This document shows positions 1-14,276 of a stretch of DNA of 43,743 nucleotides, one piece after another. Position numbers and translations under genes: made by a program. Location: the NCBI GenBank assembly GCA_044070495.1, contig JBIPSI010000039.1, forward strand, positions 1-43,743. The letters run 5' to 3'. Each line of letters starts with the position of its first letter. Position 1 is the first letter of the stretch. Below the pieces are notes generated by a model, which saw nothing but the letters and a program-made list of their open reading frames with translations, made no database searches and had not been told where the DNA came from. This DNA comes from Spirulina sp. (lineage in GTDB: Bacteria; Cyanobacteriota; Cyanobacteriia; Phormidesmidales; Phormidesmidaceae).

Positions 1-63
1 TTGCCCATTTTGATACATCAGCAGCGCGCTGAGCAGTCTAATTCCAGTACCGACGCAATCTAA
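1..63 (+). CDS. 3' end of a probable upstream cassette gene (partial)
   Basis: Open frame LPILIHQQRAEQSNSSTDAI* whose TAA lies inside the attC R'' box (ATCTAAC), as is typical for cassette genes; only 20 codons visible. Confidence 0.45.
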   Translation: MPILIHQQRAEQSNSSTDAI

Positions 64-144
64 CAACCCGGCTGGAGCGGACTGTTGAGCGATCTTGGTG
101 GTGTTGCAAAAGTTGCGTACAGCCGCTCAGCCGGAACGTTAGGC
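58..144 (+). mobile_element. attC-like recombination site 1
   Basis: ATCTAAC (RYYYAAC) at 58-64 and GTTAGGC (GTTRRRY) at 138-144; arms CCGGCTG[G]AGCGG[A]CTGT / ACAGCCGCTCAGCCGG pair with two unpaired bases. Confidence 0.9.
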
Positions 145-175
145 GCACTGAGAGAAAACAGGAGGAGAAACCCAC

Positions 176-1696
176 GTGGCATTGTTCAGACAACTCGGTT
201 TTGAGTCTCATCCTTTCCTTAAGACAAATGCTGACGAGGAGGAGGAGCTTCAATCTTATTTCGTGCCTCCTCCTTATTTTGATGCCATCATCGGCGATTC
301 CAACTCTCCTAACTCATCCATCGTATTGGCTCCACGTGGAGCAGGAAAAACTGCACAACGGCGAATGGTCGAAGCAGCATCGAATCAATCCAGATATTTG
401 GCTGTCACCTATGATCGATTTGAATTTAGTGCTAGCCAAAAAATCATTGATATATCACTTAATTATCATTTAAGAAATATCATTACACGCATTCTAATTT
501 CATTTCTTTCCTATCTAAGCGAATGGCCAGATGTTTCAAAAAGCTTATCCAAAGATGAAAAGAAGCAACTGGCCGTTTTTATTCAAACTTACTTGGGAGA
601 GCTAACTGGAGACAGCTTACAACAGCTTCTGAATGAATTAAAGAGTCTGCCCGATAAATTTAAATCGTTTTGGCACCAAAATGTCGGATTCATGGAATCA
701 GTCATTAATTTTCTCTTGAAGGCCTACGAACTCCCAAATATTGATTTACCCGACGCAAAACATGAAGAAAAACGCCTTGGAGAAACTTACAAATTTCAAC
801 TTGAAACATTACTAAAGCTAGTTCAAAAAATAGGCTTTAAGTCAATATATATTCTAGTAGATAGACCAGACGAAACAGAGAAGACCGGTAACGACCCCGA
901 GAGCACGTATCAGCTAATTCGGCCTTTGATACGTGATTTAGAGCTTCTTGGACTCTCTGGATATGGATTCAAGTTTTTTCTCTGGGATCAAATTGAGCCT
1001 TTCTTTCGATCAGACGCACGCCCGGACCGAGTGCCACAGTATGAATTGAAGTGGAGTAGAAATAGCTTGAAGGCAGTTCTATCGAAACGTCTGTTGGCAT
1101 TCAGTGGTGGGGGAATAAGCTCATTTGATGTTTTGTTGGAGGAGCCGTGTAACATTGATGATCAGCTTTGCCTGATGGCTAATGGTTCACCTCGAAACCT
1201 CATTCGACTTTGTGAGCGTATTTTAGCAATCCAGGGCGATCGTGACCCAACCTCTCGTAAGATTTCCCTGGCTGCTATTGACCAAGCAACGGTAGCTCAC
1301 AGTGAAAAAATATGCGTAGAAAACTATGGGGAAAATATTCTCAAAGAACTTCAGCGCGTAGGAAGGGAACTTTTTACCACAAACTTCGTCGCCAATGACA
1401 TCCTCAAAATTTCTGCTAACGGAGCACGCAATAAAATTACTAATTGGGTAAATCTCGGAGTAGTTTCGCAGGTAGGAACAGTGATTATTCCACCTGCTAC
1501 CCGACCAACATACTTATATGGTGTAATCGATCCATGTGTTGTGAGGGTGATGCATAGAGCCATACCTTTTGTGGACTTTGTTCATGATCGCTGGCTGCCC
1601 TGTGACCATTGCCTTACTGATAACTTAATAAACATTGCTCTCTTTCCCGATAATGAAGATCCAGTATGCCGTCAATGTGGACGAAAACTAATATGA
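176..1696 (+). CDS. P-loop ATPase (Sll1717/STAND-like) with C-terminal HTH-like region and Zn ribbon
   Basis: Walker A APRGAGKT, Walker B IYILVDRPDE, ANGSPRNLIRLC motif, CDHC...CRQC at C-terminus; GGAGGA RBS before GTG; low GC. Confidence 0.8.
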   Translation: MALFRQLGFESHPFLKTNADEEEELQSYFVPPPYFDAIIGDSNSPNSSIVLAPRGAGKTAQRRMVEAASNQSRYLAVTYDRFEFSASQKIIDISLNYHLRNIITRILISFLSYLSEWPDVSKSLSKDEKKQLAVFIQTYLGELTGDSLQQLLNELKSLPDKFKSFWHQNVGFMESVINFLLKAYELPNIDLPDAKHEEKRLGETYKFQLETLLKLVQKIGFKSIYILVDRPDETEKTGNDPESTYQLIRPLIRDLELLGLSGYGFKFFLWDQIEPFFRSDARPDRVPQYELKWSRNSLKAVLSKRLLAFSGGGISSFDVLLEEPCNIDDQLCLMANGSPRNLIRLCERILAIQGDRDPTSRKISLAAIDQATVAHSEKICVENYGENILKELQRVGRELFTTNFVANDILKISANGARNKITNWVNLGVVSQVGTVIIPPATRPTYLYGVIDPCVVRVMHRAIPFVDFVHDRWLPCDHCLTDNLINIALFPDNEDPVCRQCGRKLI

Positions 1697-1700
1697 CGGT

Positions 1701-1774
1701 GCCCAATATAGCGCTGGACACTGATCGGTGTTACGCTGTTGCTCCACCCTAGCAGTTCAGGACGGTCGCTTAGT
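1701..1774 (+). mobile_element. degenerate attC-like site
   Basis: Starts 4 bp after the ATPase stop; GCCCAAT..GCGCTGGACACTGA...CAGTTCAG..GGTCGCTTAG follows the layout of the intact sites but both core boxes are mutated. Confidence 0.55.
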
Positions 1775-1967
1775 AGGTTGGGCTAAGTGTAGCGAACCTA
1801 AAATCAATACAGTTTGGGCTATTTCATCAAATCGCTCATACTAATAGGTGAAGCGAGAATAAGATACAAACTGGAGCATGAAGGGTAGGACTGGGTTTAA
1901 GGACAATATCGGATACGAATAGTTGAACATCCAATATTGCTGGGTTTCCTGCGTCAACCCAGCCTAT
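1773..1967. repeat. inverted pair of degenerate GTAG-type REP-like elements
   Basis: GTAGGTTGGGCTAAGTGTAGCGAACCTAAA at 1773 and TGGGTTTCCTGCGTCAACCCAGCCTAT ending 1967; related copy near 13627-13659. Confidence 0.55.
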
Positions 1968-1994
1968 GGGTGATCTGATAAGAATGTTAATACA

Positions 1995-2083
1995 GCCTAA
2001 CAACGCCCATGCACACCGACCGACGAAAGTGGCTGGGTATTGATGCAAAGGTTATCTGCGGCGGGTGATGGGCAACGTTAGCT
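1995..2083 (+). mobile_element. attC-like recombination site 2
   Basis: GCCTAAC 1995-2001 and GTTAGCT 2077-2083; arms GCCCAT[G]CAC[A]CCG[A]CCG / CGGCGGGTGATGGGC. Confidence 0.9.
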
Positions 2084-2238
2084 GGCTTAGAGGGTCGGTG
2101 GGGACACTGCTGAGGAATTTTCTGCTAGTCTTCAAAATTGCTCTCTTGAAGACACGCAAAAGCCCATTCCCGAATGAAACTCTTTCGTCTGAATAATTTA
2201 TGATGAGCTGAGCGTCAGCCTATCTATCACCAGTTGCC

Positions 2239-2664
2239 ATGCCCGAATCATGTTCCGTTTTAATTGACTTTAGCGAAGCGGGTCTAGATCTGGATCGCGC
2301 TGAAGTGGAGAACTTTTTGCTCACCATCGCCGACGAAATGGAGTCTAGCGACCTGGCGCAGTCTGCCCGTCTAGCCCGTGATGAGGATATCCCAGATGCG
2401 GCTAAGTCTGGGGTGGCGGCGTTCCTCATCGGGATTCTCACCGCTGAGATCAACCGGGAGAACCTGGGTAAGGTGATGGATTACCTGGGGAACCTGCGCT
2501 ACGGCAAAACGCTGACTCTGTCCTTTGAAGTAGACGGTATGACCTCCACCCTTGAGTATCGCAACAAGCAGGAGTTGGATCAGGCGCTAGACGCCACCGA
2601 GCGGTTGGCAAACTTGCGGGTTAAGATACTGGAACAGCAAACTCCACCTGAAAACCAGCCATAG
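2239..2664 (+). CDS. EACC1-like small protein (caspase-associated)
   Basis: 141 aa with P-x-x-A-K-S-G followed by a hydrophobic helix (VAAFLIGILTA) and C-terminal LSFEVDG..LEY; directly upstream of a C14 caspase, the usual EACC1 arrangement. Confidence 0.7.
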   Translation: MPESCSVLIDFSEAGLDLDRAEVENFLLTIADEMESSDLAQSARLARDEDIPDAAKSGVAAFLIGILTAEINRENLGKVMDYLGNLRYGKTLTLSFEVDGMTSTLEYRNKQELDQALDATERLANLRVKILEQQTPPENQP

Positions 2665-2682
2665 CAATCCAAAGCCAACTCT

Positions 2683-4551
2683 ATGGGAAAGTATGCACTC
2701 TTAATTGGCGTTGATACCTATGGAGAAGGGCTACAACCGCTACCAGCCGCTTCTAAGGATGTGGCGGCGCTACGGGAGGTATTGCTGAACCCCCAGATGG
2801 GTGGGTTTGACGAAGCGAAACCCGTGATTAACCCCACGCAGCCAGAAATGGCGCGGGAAATTGAGCTGTGGTTTCAGGATCGGCAGCCGGAGGATCTGGT
2901 GCTGCTGTTCTTTTCGGGGCATGGAGTCAAGGACGATCGCCGCGATCTTTACTTTGCTGCTGCCAATACCGAGAAACAGCGCGATCGCCTACTCACGTCC
3001 ACTGCCACCTCTGCCCGGTTTCTCCATGACCGGATTCGGGCCTGCAAAGCCAAATATCAAGTGCTCATTCTCGACTGCTGCTTTAGCGGTGCTTTTGGTG
3101 ATCTGGTTGGCAAGGATGATGGCGAAATTCCCCTGCAAGAGCAACTGGGAGCTGAGGGGCGGGTGGTGCTGACCTCCACCAGTGCGGTGGATTATTCCTT
3201 TGAAGAAAAGGGCGCGGATCTGTCGATCTATACCCGCTACTTGGTGGAAGGCATTGCCACGGGTGCTGCCGATGAAGATGGCGATGGAGCGATCACCGCA
3301 GAAGACCTACATCGGTATGCGGGGCGAAAGGTACAGGAAGCTTCGCCTGCCATGAGTCCCAAAATCTTCATTCCGCAAGGCGAAGGTTATCGCATTCGGC
3401 TGGCTCGTTCGCCCCAGGATGACCCCAGGCTGAAGTATCGCAAAGAGGCCGAGCGCCGAGCTACGGCAGCGGAGTTTACGATTCCGGCCAAGCGGCTATT
3501 GATGGGGCTTCGTGCTGAACTGGGACTTGCGGAGGCGGAGGCAGATGCGATCGAAGCAGAGGTGTTGAAGCCCCACCGGGACTATCAGCGCAAACGGCAA
3601 GACTATCACGAGACCCTGCACCAATGCCTAGAGCGGGAATCGCCCCTGAGTCCACGCACCATCAACGATCTAATGGACTACCGCGCCCACCTGCGGCTCA
3701 AACCGGAGGATGTGGCGACCATTGAGCAAGCAGTACTGGGTGGCCAAGATTTAGAAGGATATATTACGGTTCTAGAACGCCAGCGGCAGTCAGAAGCCCA
3801 ACAGAGAAAACAGGAGCAGGCCGATGCCGAACGGCGGCAACAAGCAGAAGCTCAACGCCAGCGGGAAGCGGCGGAGCAGAAGCGACAGGCGAAATCCGCT
3901 GCCCAACGCCGACAGGAAGACACAGAAAGGCAAATACAAGTTATTTGGGCGAAAGTTAAGCAGCTATTAACCACTAATCAAACTGAGCAGCTAGCTAAGC
4001 CGAATCAAATACAGGAAACCAATCTCAACAGCGAAAAGGGCATCGACTATACCCCCCTGCACGACCTACTTAAAGCCCAAGACTGGCGCGCCGCTGACCG
4101 AGAAACCCTCGAAGTGATGATTCGCGCTGCGGGTCCAGACAAGGCTAAATCGGGCTATGGGTTCGCTGGAGATGTACTCCTGAATTTTCCCTGTACAGAC
4201 CTGCGAACCATCAACTACCTATGGGTGAAGTATAGCCAGGGCAAGTTTGGCTTTAGCGTGCAGAAGGAAATCTACGTGAAATGTGGAGCCAAACTCGACG
4301 GGGAAATGCCGGATGATGAAATCATTGGCAAGTTTTTCGATCACGTCGGCTGGTATAAAGGCGATAAATTTCTGAACTATTCAGACTTCAAAGCCAGTCT
4401 CTCTTTATCTCCCAGGGGAGAATTTCCATTTGGCTATTTTGTTCATTCGGAGGAAATTGTCCGAGAGTTCATAGAGTCTGGCCGATGGACTGGGTGGGGC
4501 TATGATCCAAGTATCTTCTCTCGCATCGAGACTTGTAATCGTTTAGCATAA
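2683..4551 (+). CDS. caspase (peptidase C14) - helical/coiled-coil - GUN4 domain protein
   Basis: KYALLIGV start, catalytic FSGHG and ILDCCFSG; Q/R/E-rich coiled coil; GUN4 motifs IDYTPLHDLL..WRAADRET and FPCTDLRTI..LWVKYSQGKFGFSVQ. Confidence 0.9.
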   Translation: MGKYALLIGVDTYGEGLQPLPAASKDVAALREVLLNPQMGGFDEAKPVINPTQPEMAREIELWFQDRQPEDLVLLFFSGHGVKDDRRDLYFAAANTEKQRDRLLTSTATSARFLHDRIRACKAKYQVLILDCCFSGAFGDLVGKDDGEIPLQEQLGAEGRVVLTSTSAVDYSFEEKGADLSIYTRYLVEGIATGAADEDGDGAITAEDLHRYAGRKVQEASPAMSPKIFIPQGEGYRIRLARSPQDDPRLKYRKEAERRATAAEFTIPAKRLLMGLRAELGLAEAEADAIEAEVLKPHRDYQRKRQDYHETLHQCLERESPLSPRTINDLMDYRAHLRLKPEDVATIEQAVLGGQDLEGYITVLERQRQSEAQQRKQEQADAERRQQAEAQRQREAAEQKRQAKSAAQRRQEDTERQIQVIWAKVKQLLTTNQTEQLAKPNQIQETNLNSEKGIDYTPLHDLLKAQDWRAADRETLEVMIRAAGPDKAKSGYGFAGDVLLNFPCTDLRTINYLWVKYSQGKFGFSVQKEIYVKCGAKLDGEMPDDEIIGKFFDHVGWYKGDKFLNYSDFKASLSLSPRGEFPFGYFVHSEEIVREFIESGRWTGWGYDPSIFSRIETCNRLA

Positions 4552-4645
4552 GCAAGTTCTAGAGGTGCTTAAAGTTTGTAAATAGCTGCTCTCTACACGA
4601 TTTACCTACCTTTCAGCGATCCGTTACCTAGCACCAGGGGGGCAC

Positions 4646-4682
4646 CCAGAAACCCGGTTTTTTGAAAAACCCGGGTTTCTGG
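4646..4682. repeat. palindromic cyanobacterial repeat
   Basis: CCAGAAACCCGGTTTTTTGAAAAACCCGGGTTTCTGG imperfect palindrome; similar hairpin at ~16818-16851. Confidence 0.7.
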
Positions 4683-4731
4683 CCACCAGCTAAAACCTTG
4701 GTATAAACTCACACTTACCATCACCCTAGCT

Positions 4732-4977
4732 ATGCTTAGTACAACAGTCACTGATACCGGACAAATTACCTTACCTGACGAAATTCGGCAGCATCTCAAG
4801 CTAGTGAGCGGCAGCCGAGTCGAGTTCGTCATCGACGAAGACGGTCAAGTCAAAATCTTCCCCCTCAACGTTGCCGTAGAAACCCTATCCGGTATCCTTC
4901 ATCGCTCGGGCATTCAACCCGCCTCCCTTGAGGACATGGAAACCGCCATCTCCGAGGGCGCGAATGATTGGGCTTGA
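4732..4977 (+). CDS. AbrB/MazE-family antitoxin
   Basis: TTVTDTGQITLPDEIRQHLKL..GSRVEF motif; overlaps the PIN toxin start. Confidence 0.88.
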   Translation: MLSTTVTDTGQITLPDEIRQHLKLVSGSRVEFVIDEDGQVKIFPLNVAVETLSGILHRSGIQPASLEDMETAISEGANDWA

Positions 4978-5353
4978 TACCAACATCCTGGTTCGCTACC
5001 TCACCCGCGACGACGAGCAGCAGTGGCAGCAAGCCGCCACCGTTATTCAGCGAAGTCAGCCTTGCTTCGTTACCAATATCGTTCTGTGTGAGTTGGTTTG
5101 GGTGCTGAAGGGTGCAAACTATAGCTTTCGTAAGGACGAAATCATCGGCGTCCTAGAGGCGATGCTGCACAGTGCAGCTTTTGAATTTGAAGATCGCTCG
5201 ACGGTTGACCAGGCTCTACAGCGGTACAAGCAGGGCAAAGCTGATTTTTCTGATTATCTGATTGGGGCGGTATCTCGACAGGCCGGTTGCACAGAAACCG
5301 TAAGCTTTGATGGCAAATTGAAGGGTGAACGAGGATTTCGGTGTCTGGAGTAG
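4964..5353 (+). CDS. vapC: PIN-domain (VapC) toxin
   Basis: MIGLDTNILVRYL..., ELVWVL, ADFSDYLI, TVSFD motifs; ATG at 4964 overlaps the antitoxin end. Confidence 0.9.
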   Translation: MIGLDTNILVRYLTRDDEQQWQQAATVIQRSQPCFVTNIVLCELVWVLKGANYSFRKDEIIGVLEAMLHSAAFEFEDRSTVDQALQRYKQGKADFSDYLIGAVSRQAGCTETVSFDGKLKGERGFRCLE

Positions 5354-5360
5354 CATCGCC

Positions 5361-5446
5361 AGCTAACACTGCGTGGCAGCGGACGGTCATAAACTTCTGG
5401 TTTGCCTCCCAAGGCTGTCTGCCGCCGCTGCACTTCACCGTTAGAC
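5361..5446 (+). mobile_element. attC-like recombination site 3
   Basis: AGCTAAC 5361-5367 and GTTAGAC 5440-5446; arms GTG[G]CAGCGG[A]CGG / CCGCCGCTGCAC; 7 bp after the vapC stop. Confidence 0.9.
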
Positions 5447-5782
5447 TGCTTAATCTGCTGACTTAGCGAGTGTAACAAACATGAAAGAGAAGTAAGAGTA
5501 ATTACTGTGGTATGAGTATTTTCCCCTAAAGATTAATTGCATTTGCTTAAAACGAGGAATGTGCTAAAAATTTTAATCTGATAATAGAGGGTAGAAATAC
5601 TTAAGCTTCTTTGCTTTTTCTCCTGATTTGGAAAGCATTTACTAATGGCTAAACATGCTTAAGAGCTTGGGCACAGGGATTTAGGTAAGGACTGCCACTT
5701 ACCTCACCCGAATAAGAATCCCTATAGCACAACCAGTGACTTCTGAAGACGTTTAACAAAAAGTAGGAGAGTCGCTACTGTC

Positions 5783-7006
5783 ATGAACAAGAATTATTTA
5801 GATCCAAAACAATTCATGCTGGCTGACGACCTCATGACAAATATTATGGGAGCATTGGCACATGGTCATAAAGAATTGGTAACCCAATCGAATTCCAATC
5901 TTGGTACCCTAGCCGTAAAATCAGCACAACTGAATGTAAGTTTTGATTTCAGTGTAGTTGAAAAGAATACAGGTGAAAGACTGGGATTAACAGTAAGACC
6001 TAGCCCTTTTTTTGGATTTGCGGCTGGATTTCAAACTGAAAAGAGTGAACAAAGTGCTTCTATTTCAAATAGAGCAACCATTACAATTGATATTGTCAAT
6101 GTGGCACCACTATCGGATACAAAAGAATCTGATACATCATCAGGGGAAGACACAGAAGAAGGCACAACAGGAAATACTGGCAATCCTCCAGTCAGACCAT
6201 ATGATAAAGAACGCCTGAAAATTCTTCTTGATGAACTGCTTGCTTTTATTAAAAGAGATTGGCCATCCATTCTGTCTTCAACAGAAACCTTGGTTAATGA
6301 AATCGAAGTTTACCTTAGGACAGATGAGGTGAGAATAGCTGGAGCGCTTATAACAAAGCTGACAGGGGACTTGTATAAAGCATTCCAAGCAACTAATACT
6401 AGAATGTCTCGAGAACTAGAAGCAGTGCTTGGAAATTTAGATGCTTTTTTGAGTGGCATTAAGCTGACGGATGAACTCATCCCATCCAATACTAGGGATA
6501 TTATAGAATCCTTGCCTCGCCAATTTGGACTACTAGATTTAAGTGCTGAAATCCTGAGTAATTTCGACCAGCAAATTAAAGCTGTGCTCGGGTCTGACAG
6601 CGAAATTGCGGCTGGTCTCATACTTCAAAGGGCAATAGCTGAGCTTGCCCCTCATCTTTCTGGCAAGATCTTGCCAAAGAAACTGCTTGACAGTCTGGAG
6701 GAATTACGGCTTCTTAAGACACTCGACATAAGTGACATGCAATGGAAACAAGCATTTGAGTCATCGGTAAGAACACTGCGTACTTCTATTCGTACCCTCC
6801 AGTTGCCAGAAGATATAAGTACTGGTTTTGAAGCTGATTGTGACCATGCATTGGCAAGCCATAGTGCTATTGAAGCTGGGAGCCGCCTTGTGGTGGCATT
6901 GGATACACTAAATCGTACAACTCAGGAATTGCCATTATCCCAGGAGATACAGAAGGTGTTAGAGCAGTTTGTTCAACCCGCCATAACAAATGAGGAAACC
7001 TTGTAA
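5783..7006 (+). CDS. hypothetical protein: N-terminal Trypco2-like helix/beta module, acidic linker, three helical repeats
   Basis: 407 aa ORF with AGGAG RBS; domain call is pattern-based only. Confidence 0.75.
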   Translation: MNKNYLDPKQFMLADDLMTNIMGALAHGHKELVTQSNSNLGTLAVKSAQLNVSFDFSVVEKNTGERLGLTVRPSPFFGFAAGFQTEKSEQSASISNRATITIDIVNVAPLSDTKESDTSSGEDTEEGTTGNTGNPPVRPYDKERLKILLDELLAFIKRDWPSILSSTETLVNEIEVYLRTDEVRIAGALITKLTGDLYKAFQATNTRMSRELEAVLGNLDAFLSGIKLTDELIPSNTRDIIESLPRQFGLLDLSAEILSNFDQQIKAVLGSDSEIAAGLILQRAIAELAPHLSGKILPKKLLDSLEELRLLKTLDISDMQWKQAFESSVRTLRTSIRTLQLPEDISTGFEADCDHALASHSAIEAGSRLVVALDTLNRTTQELPLSQEIQKVLEQFVQPAITNEETL

Positions 7007-7027
7007 ATGTAACTAGGAGGGTTTCAA

Positions 7028-7447
7028 ATGCCAAATCTAGCTGAAGACGCGAAAGCCCTAGCTGAGCTTCTGACAAAATATGGAGTGGAGACAGTCGAGG
7101 AGCTTAAGAACAAAATTGAGAATTGGAAAAATAAGTCAGAAGAGCTGGCTGAGCTTCTGAAAGATTATGGAGTGGATACGGTCGATAAGCTTAAGGAAAA
7201 AATTAAGGAGTTGTCTGGTGGAATAAACGTACCAGGAAATGGATCCCCTTCACCGATAGCACCTGGTGATCCATTGCAGCCGCTGAAGCGACTTGCTGAG
7301 GCTATTGATGAAGCGGAGAGTATATTGAATCAACAAAATCTGGTAATTGCCAGTGGAACAGTTGAAGCTGCTCTTACGGTAAATGTGGGAGGAGCAGCGG
7401 CAGAGGCAAAAGTTAATCTCAATGTTCAGCCCCGTCCCTTTCAATAA
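7028..7447 (+). CDS. hypothetical protein with 29-aa tandem repeat and C-terminal helix/beta-hairpin module
   Basis: 139 aa, AGGAGG RBS; LAELL..YGV.TV..LK.KI twice. Confidence 0.8.
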   Translation: MPNLAEDAKALAELLTKYGVETVEELKNKIENWKNKSEELAELLKDYGVDTVDKLKEKIKELSGGINVPGNGSPSPIAPGDPLQPLKRLAEAIDEAESILNQQNLVIASGTVEAALTVNVGGAAAEAKVNLNVQPRPFQ

Positions 7448-7464
7448 AGGAGAGGTTCTACAAC

Positions 7465-7848
7465 ATGGCTGAAGATATAAGTACAGCAACATTAACAGTA
7501 GATTGTGAAAGCTGGCTTCGTGATGTAGGAGGACAGTTACCGGGTGGATCTACTCTAGTGGAACAATTGCTAAAGCTACTATCAGATGCAGGGATGCCTA
7601 CGACCATCACCTTAAGTATTCCTTTTCCAAACATTCCTTCTACAGAGTCAGAAGCTGCATCTGTCGATCCAATCAGGGTTATAGCAATGCTCACGAACGC
7701 CATTACTCAAGCGGAAGAGACGTTAACTCCCCAAAATATGGAGATCGCAGGTGGGCAAATCGATTCAATGTTTAATGTCACTGATGGGATAGGTGGCATT
7801 GCATCGGCTCACTTAATACTCAAAATCGTTCCAAAAACTTACTCATAA
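7465..7848 (+). CDS. hypothetical protein, C-terminus similar to the preceding gene
   Basis: 127 aa, AAGGAGAGG RBS; DPIRVIAMLTNAITQAEETLTPQNMEIAGG vs DPLQPLKRLAEAIDEAESILNQQNLVIASG. Confidence 0.8.
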   Translation: MAEDISTATLTVDCESWLRDVGGQLPGGSTLVEQLLKLLSDAGMPTTITLSIPFPNIPSTESEAASVDPIRVIAMLTNAITQAEETLTPQNMEIAGGQIDSMFNVTDGIGGIASAHLILKIVPKTYS

Positions 7849-7868
7849 CCTTAACCAAGGAGGATGTT

Positions 7869-8360
7869 ATGACACTCTCAACCGCAATGTCTGTCGCATC
7901 ATTTTCAGTTGTTCTCGCAGAAACTTTCGCTAGTGTTGGTTTATCAACGCTAGTACCAAATGCGTTTCTTGCTCTTGCAAGATCCGCTCACTCGGCATCA
8001 GCTACAATTCCATCTGATGACATTGAAGCTGCACTTAAGAGTATCACCAAAAGCGACCAACAGTCTAAAGTTGTGCCGCCTGTTCCCGTTCCGCCAGACC
8101 CCGCAGAAGTCGCAATTGCCCTGCTGGGAATACTCGGCAAGTCAACTTCATCTGTAGATTTGCTGGTGCCAAAATCAGCTTCTATTGATGCAGAGTTTGA
8201 GTTTTATGGAGCAGAGAGATATGCAGCAGATGTCTCTGTCGGGGCAATGGTGGAAGTTGTCACCGTTAAGGGAGGATATTCAGCCCTTTACGAAACCCAT
8301 TCCAGTAACAAGGTAAAACTCCATGTTGACTTTGTAACTGTAGCTGCAAGCCTAACCTAA
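7869..8360 (+). CDS. hypothetical protein with C-terminal Trypco2-like module
   Basis: 163 aa, AAGGAGG RBS; LLVPKSASIDAEFEF...SSNKVKLHVDFVTV matches LAVKSAQLNVSFDF...SNRATITIDIVNV of the 407-aa protein. Confidence 0.78.
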   Translation: MTLSTAMSVASFSVVLAETFASVGLSTLVPNAFLALARSAHSASATIPSDDIEAALKSITKSDQQSKVVPPVPVPPDPAEVAIALLGILGKSTSSVDLLVPKSASIDAEFEFYGAERYAADVSVGAMVEVVTVKGGYSALYETHSSNKVKLHVDFVTVAASLT

Positions 8361-8404
8361 ATAATTCACCAGCTATTTGAGGAATAGCAGAACCCTTTCA
8401 GGTA

Positions 8405-8541
8405 GGCACTGGTCTCTTAAAAGGAGGTGAATCGCCACAACTGTTATGTGGCAAGGGTTATAGCCACTTTAACCCAAAACCTCGAAAGTGCTTGTCAAGC
8501 AAGGCTTTCAGCCATTCATCACCGATTAACAGACCGGTGCC
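8405..8541. mobile_element. MITE-like insertion (137 bp) with 6-bp target duplication
   Basis: Imperfect TIRs GGCACTGGTCTCTTAA / TTAACAGACCGGTGCC, flanked by CAGGTA at 8399-8404 and 8542-8547. Confidence 0.8.
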
Positions 8542-8870
8542 CAGGTATTGCATTACGGCTTCCGTGTATAAAAGCACACTGCTAAAGCTCTAAAATCGCT
8601 GTATCCCTTGCTGCATAATGAGTTTGGCCATGTCCCACGTAGGGTCATGAATAATCCAGGCTAAAACAATAGTCCGGATAGTTTTAAATCACTAACGACA
8701 GAATACAGGGTTCAGGCTCCTCATTAAGGTCAAATGCTGACAGTAAAACGTGAGTTTCAGTGCAATCAGTAGTTTTGCAGGGAGCATTCCCACATATAAC
8801 TCCAACGACTTTACCAACCAATATCGGAGAACGCTTTTTGCTGATATATTCCTGAAAGTATGGAGTCTCA

Positions 8871-8958
8871 GTCTAACAATCCCGTTGCACACCGACCGCA
8901 TCAAGCTGGTTAGTGAAGCCGAGAGGCTACTAGCGGCGGGTGAACGGGAACGTTAAGT
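8871..8958 (+). mobile_element. attC-like recombination site 4
   Basis: GTCTAAC 8871-8877 and GTTAAGT 8952-8958; arms TCCCGTT[G]CAC[A]CCG[A]CCGC / GCGGCGGGTGAACGGGA. Confidence 0.9.
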
Positions 8959-9035
8959 GGATAGGTTGACAGCCCAGACAGATCAATTCGTCGCCCCTTG
9001 ACTCAGATGTGCTGAATCTAGGGATCACCAGGCGG

Positions 9036-9155
9036 CTAGGGCACCAGCACTTTGCCTTTGAACTGGCTGGTGTAGAGGTCGTAATAAAGTCCTCTCATTT
9101 TGAGCAGTTCGTCGTGGGTGCCTTGTTCCACAATGGCTCCGGCGTTGATGTCGTA
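9036..9155 (-). pseudogene. duplicated, internally deleted 3' end of the ABC transporter gene at 9926-11722
   Basis: Translates YDINAGAIVEQGTHDELLKMRGLYYDLYTSQFKGKVLVP*, near-identical to that gene's C-terminus. Confidence 0.85.
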
Positions 9156-9512
9156 TTACTCAATCAGATGATTTTCGATGATTTGACAGATTGTTCTATC
9201 TGAAATGTCTCCTTGGTCAGATTTAGAGTAGATCGTGACCAGAATGATCTTGGCTTGAGTCTTCAGGTAGTAGATCACTCGGTAGCCGCCGCTTTTTCCC
9301 CGCTGAGCATCGCTATTTCTCAGTCGCACCTTAAAGACGGTATAGGCTATGCCCGAAATTTGGTCGCCGGGGCAATCTCCAGCCTGTAGTTGGGCGAGCA
9401 GAGGCTCTAGGTCTGAGCGAATGTGCCGATAGCGCTTGGCTAAGGCACGGAGGTTGCGCTTGAAGTCGGACGAAACCTCCAGATTAATGAATGATGGTTC
9501 ACTCGGCATCAA
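9156..9512 (-). CDS. RelE/ParE (HigB-like) toxin
   Basis: FKRNLRALAKRYR, VFKVRLRNSD..RGKSGGYRVIYY, ILVTIYSKSDQ motifs. Confidence 0.88.
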   Translation of the reverse strand: MMPSEPSFINLEVSSDFKRNLRALAKRYRHIRSDLEPLLAQLQAGDCPGDQISGIAYTVFKVRLRNSDAQRGKSGGYRVIYYLKTQAKIILVTIYSKSDQGDISDRTICQIIENHLIE

Positions 9513-9735
9513 TGCCGTCCCATAGTTCGGCCAGGGGAATGGTTTGACCAGTCATGGCTTCGTGCCAGCCTTGGCGAAAGCTGGCTTCGGCGCTTTTGAG
9601 GGTGACACTTTCGCGAAATAGACGCACAATCTGCAACAGGTTGGGCAGATATTCTGGGGGTGTTTGCTCAATCTCTTGCATTACGGCATCAAGTACAACG
9701 TTGTTGCTAGAAGCCATGGGGTTGCCTGTGGTCAT
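9499..9735 (-). CDS. cognate antitoxin
   Basis: 78 aa acidic ORF overlapping the toxin start; SFRQGWHEAMTGQTIPLAELWDGID C-terminus typical of this TA type. Confidence 0.75.
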   Translation of the reverse strand: MTTGNPMASSNNVVLDAVMQEIEQTPPEYLPNLLQIVRLFRESVTLKSAEASFRQGWHEAMTGQTIPLAELWDGIDAE

Positions 9736-9925: not shown

Positions 9926-11722
9926 TTAAGGGACTAACACCTTGCCTTTGAACTGGCTAGTGTAGAGGTCGTAGTAAAGACCTCCCATTTTAAGCAGTTC
10001 GTCGTGGGTGCCTTGTTCGACAATAGCCCCACTGTTTAGGACGAGGATTTTGTCGGCGTGGCGGATAGTGCTGAGGCGGTGGGCGATGACGAAGCTGGTG
10101 CGTCCGGCCATCAGGCGGTTGAGGGCGTCTTGGATTTTGGCCTCGGTGCGGGTATCGACGTTGCTGGTGGCTTCATCGAGGATGACCAGGCGGGGGTTGG
10201 CCACCATCATGCGGGCGATGGTGAGCAGTTGGCGTTGGCCCTGGCTGAGGTTGCTGCCTCGTTCGGTGAGCAGGGTGTCGTAGCCGTGGGGCAAGCGCAG
10301 GATGAAGTCGTGGGCGTTGGCCTGTTTGGCGGCTTCGATGCAGTCGGCTTCGCTGGCCTCTAGGCGGGCGTAGCGCAGGTTGTTGAGGACGGTGTCGGAG
10401 AACAAAAAGGGTTCTTGCAACACGATGCCCACCTGTTGGCGCAGGCTGTCTTGCTGTACGTCGAGGAGGTTGTGGCCGTCGATGAGGATGGCTCCGGCGT
10501 CGATGTCGTAGTAGCGGGTGAGCAGGTTGATGATGGTGCTTTTCCCGGCTCCGGTGGGGCCGCAAAGGCCGATGGTTTGGCCCGGTTCGGCGATGAAGCT
10601 ATTGTGTTTGAGGACGCGCTGCCCCGGCACGTAGCCAAAGTCTACCTGGCGAAATTCTACCCGTCCTTCGATGGGCGGCAGGGGGATGGCGTTGGGGGCA
10701 TCCTGCACGGCGGGGGCTTCGTCCAAAATTTGGAAGATGCGCTCTGACGCAGAAATGGCGGCCAGCAAGAAATCCAGCGTATTGGCGATGTTGATGATCG
10801 GCAGGCCCATCTGGCGGGTGTATTGCAGAAAGGCGGTGACGGTGCCCACATCGGCCTCGCCGCGCAGGGTGAGCAGGCTGCCCACCAGGGCCACCAGGGC
10901 CACATCCAGGTTGGTGAGTACCAGGGTGAGGGGGCGGCTGAGCAGGGCCACAAACCTGGCCCGAATGCCTATCTCCATGGCGGCGCGGCTGACTTCCTCA
11001 AAATTGGCGATGGCTTCTTCTTGACGTTGATAGGCGATCACCACCCGTTCGCCGCTGACGGTTTCTTCCAGAATGCCGTTGAGTTCGCCGATTTCCGCTT
11101 GCAGGGCATCGAAGGCGGGGCCAGAAATGCGGCTAACCATCCCTAGAAAGCCCAGCACCAGGGGCACAATTACGCAGGCGGCGATGGCCATGCGCCAGTT
11201 CAGCAGCACCATGGCCAGGATGATGAACACCACCTTAAGGGTCTCGCTCAGCAGCATCCCTAGGCCGTTGCGGAAGAACTGGGCCACCACCTCGGCATCG
11301 TCGCTGACGCGGCTCATCAACTGGCCGATGGGTTGGCGGTCAAAGAAGTTCAAAGACAGGGTTTGCATGTGCTCAAACACCTGTCGGCGCAGCACGTAGA
11401 GGGCGCGCTGGGCCACATTAGCCAGCACCTCCCCCTGGAGCACCAGCAGCAGCCAGCTCACCACCGCTGCCGCCACCATCCACCCCGCCAGCCGGGTCAG
11501 GTAGGGGCCATCCAATCCAGCACTAAGGCTATTGAGACCTTGACCCAACAGGAAGGGAATGAACAAATTTAGGGCCGTCCCCACGATGAGGAGCACCACC
11601 ACCAGGGCCATCTCCCAGCGGTAGCGGGTGACGTAGCCCAACAGTCGCCCTAAGGCCTGGGGAGGTGGGGCCAAGTCTGGTGGCGCAATTTTGACCCGAT
11701 GACGACGCAAAAACCGTTTCAT
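9926..11722 (-). CDS. ABC exporter, ATP-binding/permease subunit
   Basis: TM domain + GPTGAGKST, LSQGQRQ, ILDEATS. Confidence 0.93.
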   Translation of the reverse strand: MKRFLRRHRVKIAPPDLAPPPQALGRLLGYVTRYRWEMALVVVLLIVGTALNLFIPFLLGQGLNSLSAGLDGPYLTRLAGWMVAAAVVSWLLLVLQGEVLANVAQRALYVLRRQVFEHMQTLSLNFFDRQPIGQLMSRVSDDAEVVAQFFRNGLGMLLSETLKVVFIILAMVLLNWRMAIAACVIVPLVLGFLGMVSRISGPAFDALQAEIGELNGILEETVSGERVVIAYQRQEEAIANFEEVSRAAMEIGIRARFVALLSRPLTLVLTNLDVALVALVGSLLTLRGEADVGTVTAFLQYTRQMGLPIINIANTLDFLLAAISASERIFQILDEAPAVQDAPNAIPLPPIEGRVEFRQVDFGYVPGQRVLKHNSFIAEPGQTIGLCGPTGAGKSTIINLLTRYYDIDAGAILIDGHNLLDVQQDSLRQQVGIVLQEPFLFSDTVLNNLRYARLEASEADCIEAAKQANAHDFILRLPHGYDTLLTERGSNLSQGQRQLLTIARMMVANPRLVILDEATSNVDTRTEAKIQDALNRLMAGRTSFVIAHRLSTIRHADKILVLNSGAIVEQGTHDELLKMGGLYYDLYTSQFKGKVLVP

Positions 11723-14046: not shown

Positions 14047-14099
14047 ACCTGATGATTGCGTTTGTGAGAAGCAGTTTTTCCTAAAGAGACGCTTATTTA

Positions 14100-14244
14100 T
14101 AGCGGATTTTACTCGGTGAAGTACATTGCGATGATCCCCCCTGCCCCCCTTGCTAAGGGGGGTAAAGAGTGAACCTTAGACAGATAGGTACTAGGGGGAT
14201 CTAGAACCCAGCTATGGTGTATCTCACGCTATCGAGAACCGCTA
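14100..14244. mobile_element. MITE-like element with IS630-type-looking ends and internal CCCCCC/GGGGGG palindrome
   Basis: TAGCGGATTTTACTCGGTGAAGTACA ... TGTATCTCACGCTATCGAGAACCGCTA imperfect TIR. Confidence 0.6.
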
Positions 14245-14276
14245 CATTTGAGGCTCATTACGCTGTCTCATCAAAC

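Follow-up and report, generated by a model that had tools for sequence, protein, structure and literature searches.

A short integron-type cassette array behind an attI-like head in the cyanobacterium Spirulina sp.

Introduction

We analysed positions 1 to 43,743 of contig C39 (JBIPSI010000039.1; this whole stretch is hereafter called the window) in the genome G000 of Spirulina sp., which is assembled into 74 contigs totalling 5.3 Mb (GCA_044070495.1). The left end of the window is very probably part of an integron-type cassette array, which starts at an attI-like head, formally ranks as an attC cluster without an integron integrase (CALIN), and would be served by the standard integron mechanism. 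The recombination sites and their structure, the footprint that recombination left in the cassettes, the head, the integrase gene intI, the families of the cargo genes, and the variation of the cassettes between samples are established from the sequence.

Structure of the four attC sites

Four co-oriented attC-type hairpins of 86-89 nt occupy the plus strand at the left end of the window. They were scored with a covariance model built from 15 sites, six of which come from arrays of two other species; sites of the window were held out of the model to avoid circularity.

58-144, plus strand: attC site e1, R″ box ATCTAAC and R′ box GTTAGGC, 73.9 bits; the assembly graph branches right after its GTTA
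1995-2083, plus strand: attC site e2, R″ box GCCTAAC and R′ box GTTAGCT, 73.4 bits
5361-5446, plus strand: attC site e3, R″ box AGCTAAC and R′ box GTTAGAC, 72.8 bits; contigs of two public runs, X1 and X5, match from 5441
8871-8958, plus strand: attC site e4, the last site, R″ box GTCTAAC and R′ box GTTAAGT, 62.9 bits

In each site, the R″ box lies at the left end and the inverted R′ box at the right end, and folding predicts a long imperfect hairpin whose bulges are single bases confined to the 5′ arm. A G and an A are unpaired in all four sites, and a second A is additionally unpaired in e2 and e4. The length of the hairpins falls within the range of attC sites, which is 57-141 nt. When the plus strand is folded as single-stranded DNA, the z-scores against shuffled sequences are -3.70 for e1, -0.28 for e2, -2.80 for e3, and -4.95 for e4. 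A first-pass annotation, made from the letters alone, had placed four co-oriented palindromes at exactly these coordinates and had recognized in them the attC architecture bounded by RYYYAAC and GTTRRRY. The positions, the strand, and the architecture are all borne out, the last by the model scores, the covariation, and the recombination footprint described below. The box consensus is exact in six of the eight boxes, while the R′ box of e2 and the R″ box of e3 each deviate by one letter.

Is the hairpin structure conserved among the sites? We aligned the four window sites with eight copies from other contigs of the genome (12 members, 20 base pairs). Standard pairs fill 91.3% of the 240 pair cells, as compared to 70.4 ± 2.0% in shuffled alignments (none of 500 shuffles reaches the observed value) and 28-45% when the pairing partners are slid. 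Changes on both sides occur at 13 of the 20 pairs, and the unpaired G and the unpaired A of the 5′ arm are invariant in all 12 sites; in attC sites, extrahelical bases confined to one arm set the strand. Site A3 has a 3x3 internal loop and a 36-nt loop; attC hairpins are expected to have an unpaired central spacer and a variable loop. The held-out model detects the window sites on the plus strand with E-values from 5e-17 to 4e-14; their reverse strands score at most 17.3 bits, and the model finds no further attC site at E<=1 elsewhere in the window. A crude energy-based hairpin scan, which missed e2 and reported many unrelated hairpins, was replaced by an arm-alignment scan and then by covariance models. 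By their fold, covariation, and model scores, the four palindromes are genuine attC-type integron recombination sites.

Array layout and the footprint of recombination

The elements are arranged in the order attI head, c0, e1, c1, e2, c2, e3, c3, e4, where c0 to c3 denote the cassettes. The last site ends at 8958, and the gaps between successive sites are 1851, 3278, and 3425 bases.

139-2077: cassette c1
2078-5440: cassette c2
5441-8952: cassette c3

Integron crossover takes place between the G and the TT of the R′ box, so that the last six bases of an attC site within an array belong to the next cassette. Hence, the first six bases of that next cassette are expected to complement the R″ box of its own attC site. 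This is exactly what the array displays: the first six bases and the R″ letters of the cassette's own 3′ attC are TTAGAT and ATCTAA for c0, TTAGGC and GCCTAA for c1, TTAGCT and AGCTAA for c2, and TTAGAC and GTCTAA for c3, which are exact reverse complements in four of four cassettes. In contrast, the R″ and R′ boxes of one and the same attC, as they now stand, agree at only three to four of six positions. When four arrays of the genome are counted together, eight of ten cassettes have a perfect footprint, as compared to none of ten in-place pairs. Judged from these letters, the match in all four cassettes is the footprint of recombination at G|TT.

Ten plausible open reading frames (ORFs) lie between 176 and 8360, and all are on the plus strand, as the first-pass annotation had stated. 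We considered whether c2 consists of two cassettes fused by the loss of an attC, and rejected this idea: the interval 4551-4732 yields no score with either of the two covariance models, and the first six bases of c2 match e3. A contig of run X12, which also joins the caspase gene of c2 to the antitoxin region, further disfavors the fusion. The integron integrase profile TIGR02249 has no match on contig C39. A CALIN is defined by two or more attC sites spaced at most 4 kb apart and by the lack of a nearby intI, and the locus shows both.

attI-like heads and the integrase

Where does the array begin? The first 141 bases of the window are identical to the last 141 bases of contig C33 and to the first 141 bases of contig C23; 141 is the overlap length throughout the assembly, which derives from a k=141 graph. 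On C33, the head of the window's array is a 190-bp region at 56.9-57.1 kb with three 41-bp direct repeats. Its core ends in ...AAAGAG|TTAGAT, and it lies about 120 bases upstream of the start of the c0 gene. A 92% identical copy of this head is found at the other end of C33, in the opposite orientation and directly upstream of the intact intI gene.

Seven attI-like heads are present in the genome. They align with one another up to ...AAAGAG|TT and diverge right after the GTT into different first cassettes, and this is what attI × attC recombination predicts. The seven heads are putative attI-like docking sites. The conserved part of the head also contains a promoter-like site that points into the cassettes, as indicated by a consensus match only. 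An exact-pattern search for the attI core proved too strict, with hits in 4 of 53 genomes of the genus, and was replaced by BLAST of the head. In three heads (left end of C33, C60, and C17), attI is directly followed by a small first cassette that has no ORF, measures about 125 nt, and contains an internal hairpin as well as a weak attC-like site; the same cassette also opens contig C25 (1-143), and it has no match in Rfam.

The intact intI lies at C33:338-1309. It is the sole intact copy in the genome, faces the array from about 56 kb away from the array head, and has its own attI copy on its far side from the array. The predicted protein scores 466.7 bits with TIGR02249 (cut-off 265), above which none of 14 control genomes rises. 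The alignment with the Vibrio integron integrase of known structure, 2a3v, spans the protein end to end (E 5e-93) and is ungapped over residues 12-322, the integron-specific segment included. Moreover, intI remnants of various lengths occur beside several heads and elsewhere (C60, C53, C28, C23, and C8), and five or more degraded copies are present in total. On the 73.8-kb contig C28, the same fragment of the intI N-terminus (residues 13-61, about 90% identity) stands inverted at both ends, at 3-149 and 73653-73799.

The first-pass annotation had offered two descriptions, the distal end of an integron or an integrase-less attC cluster, with intI and attI to the left of the window if present, and it had called for a search for intI upstream or elsewhere in the genome. 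The second description is correct, as intI is found neither on the window's contig nor beside the head. The first must be given up: the locus is a whole short array, with its head on C33 and its end at 8958. The attI-like head and c0 do lie just to the left, on C33, while no intI adjoins the head, and the search yields the one intact copy described above. As a complete integron would have intI adjoining attI and the array, the window's locus is not one.

The number of heads raises the question of whether a larger mobile element of the transposon or island type inserted here with head and array as its cargo, and multiplied the heads by transposition. The seven heads here and up to twelve in a congener could be read in this way, as could the absence of the array from the matching site in the relative G050 and a 97-bp duplicate of the 3′ end of an ABC-transporter gene just to the right of the array. 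The head homology, however, ends at different upstream points and includes intI remnants of differing lengths. Such uneven boundaries and remnants fit whole platforms in decay, and not an element with a defined end; the region examined revealed neither a transposase nor a terminal repeat in common. We therefore consider a larger mobile element very improbable.

Cassette variation between samples and relatives

We compared the array with relatives and with contigs of public runs. Searches of the genus's other 52 species genomes detected neither the c1 protein nor the c3 DNA. The cassette c3 is present at about 94-95% identity in contigs of runs X1 and X5, which belong to two studies, and the matching stretch starts at position 5441, on the first T behind the G of the e3 R′ box. 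In X1, the sequence preceding c3 is the right arm of a different attC, namely that of the small ORF-less cassette following attI in three heads of the Spirulina genome. The X1 and X5 copies have 93 extra bases at 7033/7034 and a different attC subtype after 8889. The same cassette in a different array context is shown for c3 only. These differences, like the graph fork and the comparison with G050 described next, speak for the movement of cassettes.

The assembly graph itself has two continuations. From the end of C33, it leads either into the window or into C23, and the two paths part right after the GTTA of e1. C23 starts with a cytidine-deaminase cassette, followed by a second cassette and then by chromosomal genes, and its first cassette also carries the complementary footprint. 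The fork at e1 suggests that two arrangements coexist in the population sampled, or that a duplicate was collapsed. Within the genus, the left flank has kept too little synteny to show whether the window or C23 is the older neighbor of C33.

In G050, the nearest near-complete relative (about 90% identity in the ABC-transporter genes that flank the array), the 11 kb beside these genes contain no attC. None of the public runs holds most of window positions 1-9300 (the best share is 0.07), and c1 is covered by none of the four public runs compared.

Distribution in the genus and the class

Of the 53 genomes of the genus, 51 contain the attC family, at 1 to 82 matches per genome, and in five near-complete genomes the matches form many small co-oriented clusters and singletons. 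Homologues of the head, as found by BLAST, are present in 37 of the 53 genomes, with up to twelve in one. In that genome, G063, which is a single contig, a co-oriented attC lies at most 5 kb downstream of nine of the twelve heads, and two full-length and at least four truncated intI genes are found. Contig C1 of another genome, G024, has the canonical divergent layout, with intI at 51091-52029 on the minus strand and attC sites at 53281, 54398, and 55889 on the plus strand. In a class-wide draw, integron integrases above the cut-off are encoded by 21 of 41 genomes and in 11 of 17 genera.

A family that occurs at many loci in nearly every genome, often as singletons, might also be a dispersed repeat of the repetitive extragenic palindromic (REP) or miniature inverted-repeat transposable element (MITE) kind, or a set of terminators, with a coincidental likeness to attC; two other small dispersed repeats do occur in the window. 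This explanation is strongly disfavored, to the point of being scarcely credible. The sites share a strict strand bias with the genes, with at most 21 bits on the reverse strand, and their conserved unpaired bases are confined to one arm. The footprint holds along the chain of cassettes, the heads diverge at G|TT, and a whole cassette has been exchanged exactly at the crossover point. Finally, in relatives such sites stand directly beside intI in the canonical layout.

A working array or a relic?

The array may also be truly integron-derived and yet a fossil, in which relic sites and a relic head persist in a fixed defence island with no acting integrase. No intI is left at the head of the window's array, the genome contains five or more degraded copies, a 143-bp repeat is inserted in c3, and a multi-gene cassette has accreted. 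Against these signs of decay stand one intact, full-length intI, the stems and boxes kept in all four attC sites, and the footprint that is perfect in four of four cassettes, which mutation would erode. Moreover, the graph forks at the crossover point of e1, and the c3 copies of other samples, located behind another attC, have diverged by only about 5%. We consider a fossil array unlikely.

Several further points weigh against an integron-type array that is served by the standard mechanism. The genomes G050 and G019 keep heads and attC sites with no intI above the cut-off; heads and attC sites thus persist without a detectable intI, and such arrays can therefore be fossils. The head of the window's array, at C33:56.9-57.1 kb, is adjoined neither by intI nor by a remnant of it, and with the nearest intact intI about 56 kb off, any action would have to be in trans. 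The join between C33 and the window is a 141-base graph overlap with a second exit, into C23, and the 74-contig assembly probably stems from a mixed sample. The folding energy of e2 is no better than that of shuffled sequence, while the other three sites beat their shuffles. At 1.9-3.5 kb and up to four genes, the cassettes are large for integrons. A search of the whole window against Rfam gave no match, a result that says nothing on attC identity.

Cargo of the cassettes

The genes and other features of the cassettes are as follows.

1-63, plus strand: 3′ end of the c0 gene, which encodes a 602-residue protein (PDC-S39; DUF7380 and DUF4209) and lies mostly on C33
176-1696, plus strand: c1 gene for a P-loop ATPase, ORC-CDC6-like, matching the NCBIfam equivalog DS41_1_antiphage (NF053860) at 476.1 bits (cut-off 370)
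2239-2664, plus strand: first gene of c2, for a 141-residue protein, upstream of the caspase gene
2683-4551, plus strand: second gene of c2, for a caspase of the EACC1-associated type, fused to GUN4 as its C-terminal domain (Peptidase_C14 64 bits, GUN4 118.5 bits)
4732-4977, plus strand: third gene of c2, for a VapB-like antitoxin of the AbrB/MazE fold (MazE_antitoxin 38.1 bits)
4964-5353, plus strand: fourth gene of c2, for a VapC-like PIN-domain toxin (PIN 42.8 bits)
5783-8360, plus strand: four-gene operon of c3, encoding proteins of 407, 139, 127, and 163 residues
8399-8541, no strand assigned: dispersed repeat of 143 bp in the 3′ untranslated part of c3, absent from the X1 and X5 copies of the cassette (8398 joined to 8542)

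The c0 protein matches the PADLOC candidate PDC-S39 with 893 bits, and the TAA stop codon of its gene (61-63) lies inside the R″ box of e1. In c2, the caspase belongs to NF047832 (166.4 bits, cut-off 140). The 141-residue protein has no profile match, and its identity as EACC1 is not confirmed by any profile; we presume that it is the EACC1 partner, from its position and the subfamily name of NF047832. The in-frame ATG of the toxin gene at 4964 overlaps the end of the antitoxin gene, and the toxin stop codon precedes e3 by 8 nt. Between the caspase and antitoxin genes, a near-perfect 38-nt palindrome at 4643-4682 is probably a terminator, and short pieces resembling it are present in contigs of other runs. 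A 78% nucleotide-identical paralogue (1.47 kb) of the 141-residue protein gene and the caspase domain lies at C23:65383-66853, where it is chromosomal and not flanked by attC sites. This paralogue of the caspase module may bear on the origin of the cassette genes.

The proteins of c3 have no family in Pfam, NCBIfam, or PADLOC. Those of 139 and 127 residues are paralogues of each other, and a search of 5.8 billion clusters with the largest, c3A, yielded no more than two relatives, both distant (42% and 27% identity); no relative of c3A appears in the metagenome or genome contigs scanned. Leads for c3A from the ESM Atlas remained below threshold (best 0.80; DUF2589 in 26% of one cluster), and no family was named. 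Copies of the 143-bp repeat occur at 70-88% identity, several per genome, in many congeners. The GC content is 0.43 in c1 and c3 and 0.53 in c2, as compared to 0.58 in the flank.

Three of the four cargo units (c0, c1, and c2) belong to curated defence families, and c3 matches nothing. The view of the first-pass annotation that an ATPase, a caspase module, and a toxin-antitoxin pair make this a defence locus is thus upheld by curated profiles for these units and finds no family to support it in c3. By family membership only, the cargo would mostly consist of phage defence, abortive-infection, or toxin-antitoxin genes. Other arrays of the genome mainly carry toxin-antitoxin pairs, a PD-(D/E)XK nuclease, and small proteins without assignment. 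One cassette protein of 109 residues (C17:119636-119965; locus L019, 5637-5966, minus strand) has the C-terminal domain of ribosomal protein L7/L12 (51.9 bits), which is an odd cargo for an integron cassette.

Neighboring features

To the 3′ side of 8958, a RelE-like pair is followed by two ABC-transporter genes on the minus strand. A 97-bp stretch to the right of e4 (9038-9134) is 89.7% identical to the 3′ end of an ABC-transporter gene (9929-10024), and the RelE-like toxin-antitoxin pair (9156-9735) lies between the two copies. In congeners, the pair is found at other places, at 81-88%. With its flanking copies, the pair looks like an inserted toxin-antitoxin module. Another dispersed repeat, not related to the 143-bp one and about 150 bp long, lies at about 14095-14250 of the window; it has copies on C4, C37, C16, and C50, and is also found in many congeners at 82-91% identity.

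Comparison with known integrons

Cyanobacterial integrons, integrase-less attC clusters, and defence cassettes have already been published, and the present locus is a good instance of an element type already known. Integrons in Cyanobacteria were reported by Nemergut et al. 2008 (PMC2426708), according to the part of that article available to us. Cury et al. 2016 (PMC4889954), in the sections consulted, define CALINs, name Cyanobacteria among the integron-bearing phyla, state that 83% of CALINs have fewer than six sites, and list intI loss and rearrangement as their origins. Like those CALINs, the window's cluster is small, with two or more attC sites in the same orientation at distances below 4 kb and no intI nearby, on a replicon that encodes IntI. 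Unlike them, as far as those sections describe them, it keeps an attI head with a promoter-like site, and six further heads exist in the genome. The window's locus is thus a platform that lost only its integrase.

Sedentary chromosomal integrons store anti-phage systems, as the accessible text of Darracq et al. (bioRxiv 10.1101/2024.07.02.601686) reports. The present cassettes resemble theirs in carrying defence systems and toxin-antitoxin pairs, the latter thought to stabilize the array. The systems covered in that text reside in long arrays, chiefly of Vibrio, and are streamlined single-cassette systems; in contrast, the arrays described here are short (one to five cassettes) and multiple per genome, with large, multi-gene cassettes. 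In its main text, as available, Cyanobacteria has 0 occurrences. Ghaly et al. 2021 (PMC8352920), in the portion at hand, include cyanobacterial chromosomal attC sites as one of 11 taxon-specific covariance models; the 87-nt family described here may be among the sites of that model. Finally, an excerpt of bioRxiv 10.1101/2022.09.11.507474 describes integrase-mediated cassette insertion outside att sites. Such a route could account for the scattered single attC sites in the genus, while the attI-headed array of the window needs no such route.

Our few and partly noisy literature searches returned no description of an attI head with three 41-bp repeats, of the multiplicity of orphaned heads per genome, or of the EACC1-caspase-GUN4 module and the orphan four-gene operon as cassettes; we do not claim that any of these details is absent from print.

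Proposed mechanism and implications

We infer that the array may be active at present, acted on in trans, expressed, and functional in defence, and we propose that it would work in the following manner.

Cassette excision: The integrase, acting in trans, would bind the folded bottom strand of the attC sites, and cassettes would be excised by attC × attC recombination.

Re-insertion: An excised cassette could be re-inserted at any of the attI heads of the genome, by attI × attC recombination at G|TT.

Expression and maintenance: The cassettes would be read from the promoter-like site conserved inside the head, and the VapBC pair may help to hold the array in place. As the cargo mostly consists of putative phage defence and abortive-infection genes, the locus would be a small exchangeable defence store.

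More tentatively, the integron of the genus may be a distributed system, in which up to a dozen attI-headed mini-arrays, spread over the chromosome, hold one to five large, often multi-gene cassettes each. Most of these mini-arrays would be without an integrase and would depend on zero to two intact IntI acting in trans, with the cassettes, entire operons for defence (for example the orphan four-gene c3) among them, dealt among the expression sites. The fork at e1 would then be an exchange caught in a natural population. This proposal is possible, and we hold it with clearly less confidence than the array itself.

The locus is a well-documented cyanobacterial case of integron cassettes with defence genes, and its putative attI site is pinpointed from seven copies, which to our knowledge is rarely possible outside the clinical integron classes. 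The orphan four-gene operon of c3 and the EACC1-caspase-GUN4 module, as mobile cassettes, are candidates for experiment. Moreover, the abundance of orphaned attI heads in each genome has implications for the origin of integrase-less attC clusters: here, such clusters would have arisen by the loss of intI from duplicated platforms, and not by insertion at secondary sites.

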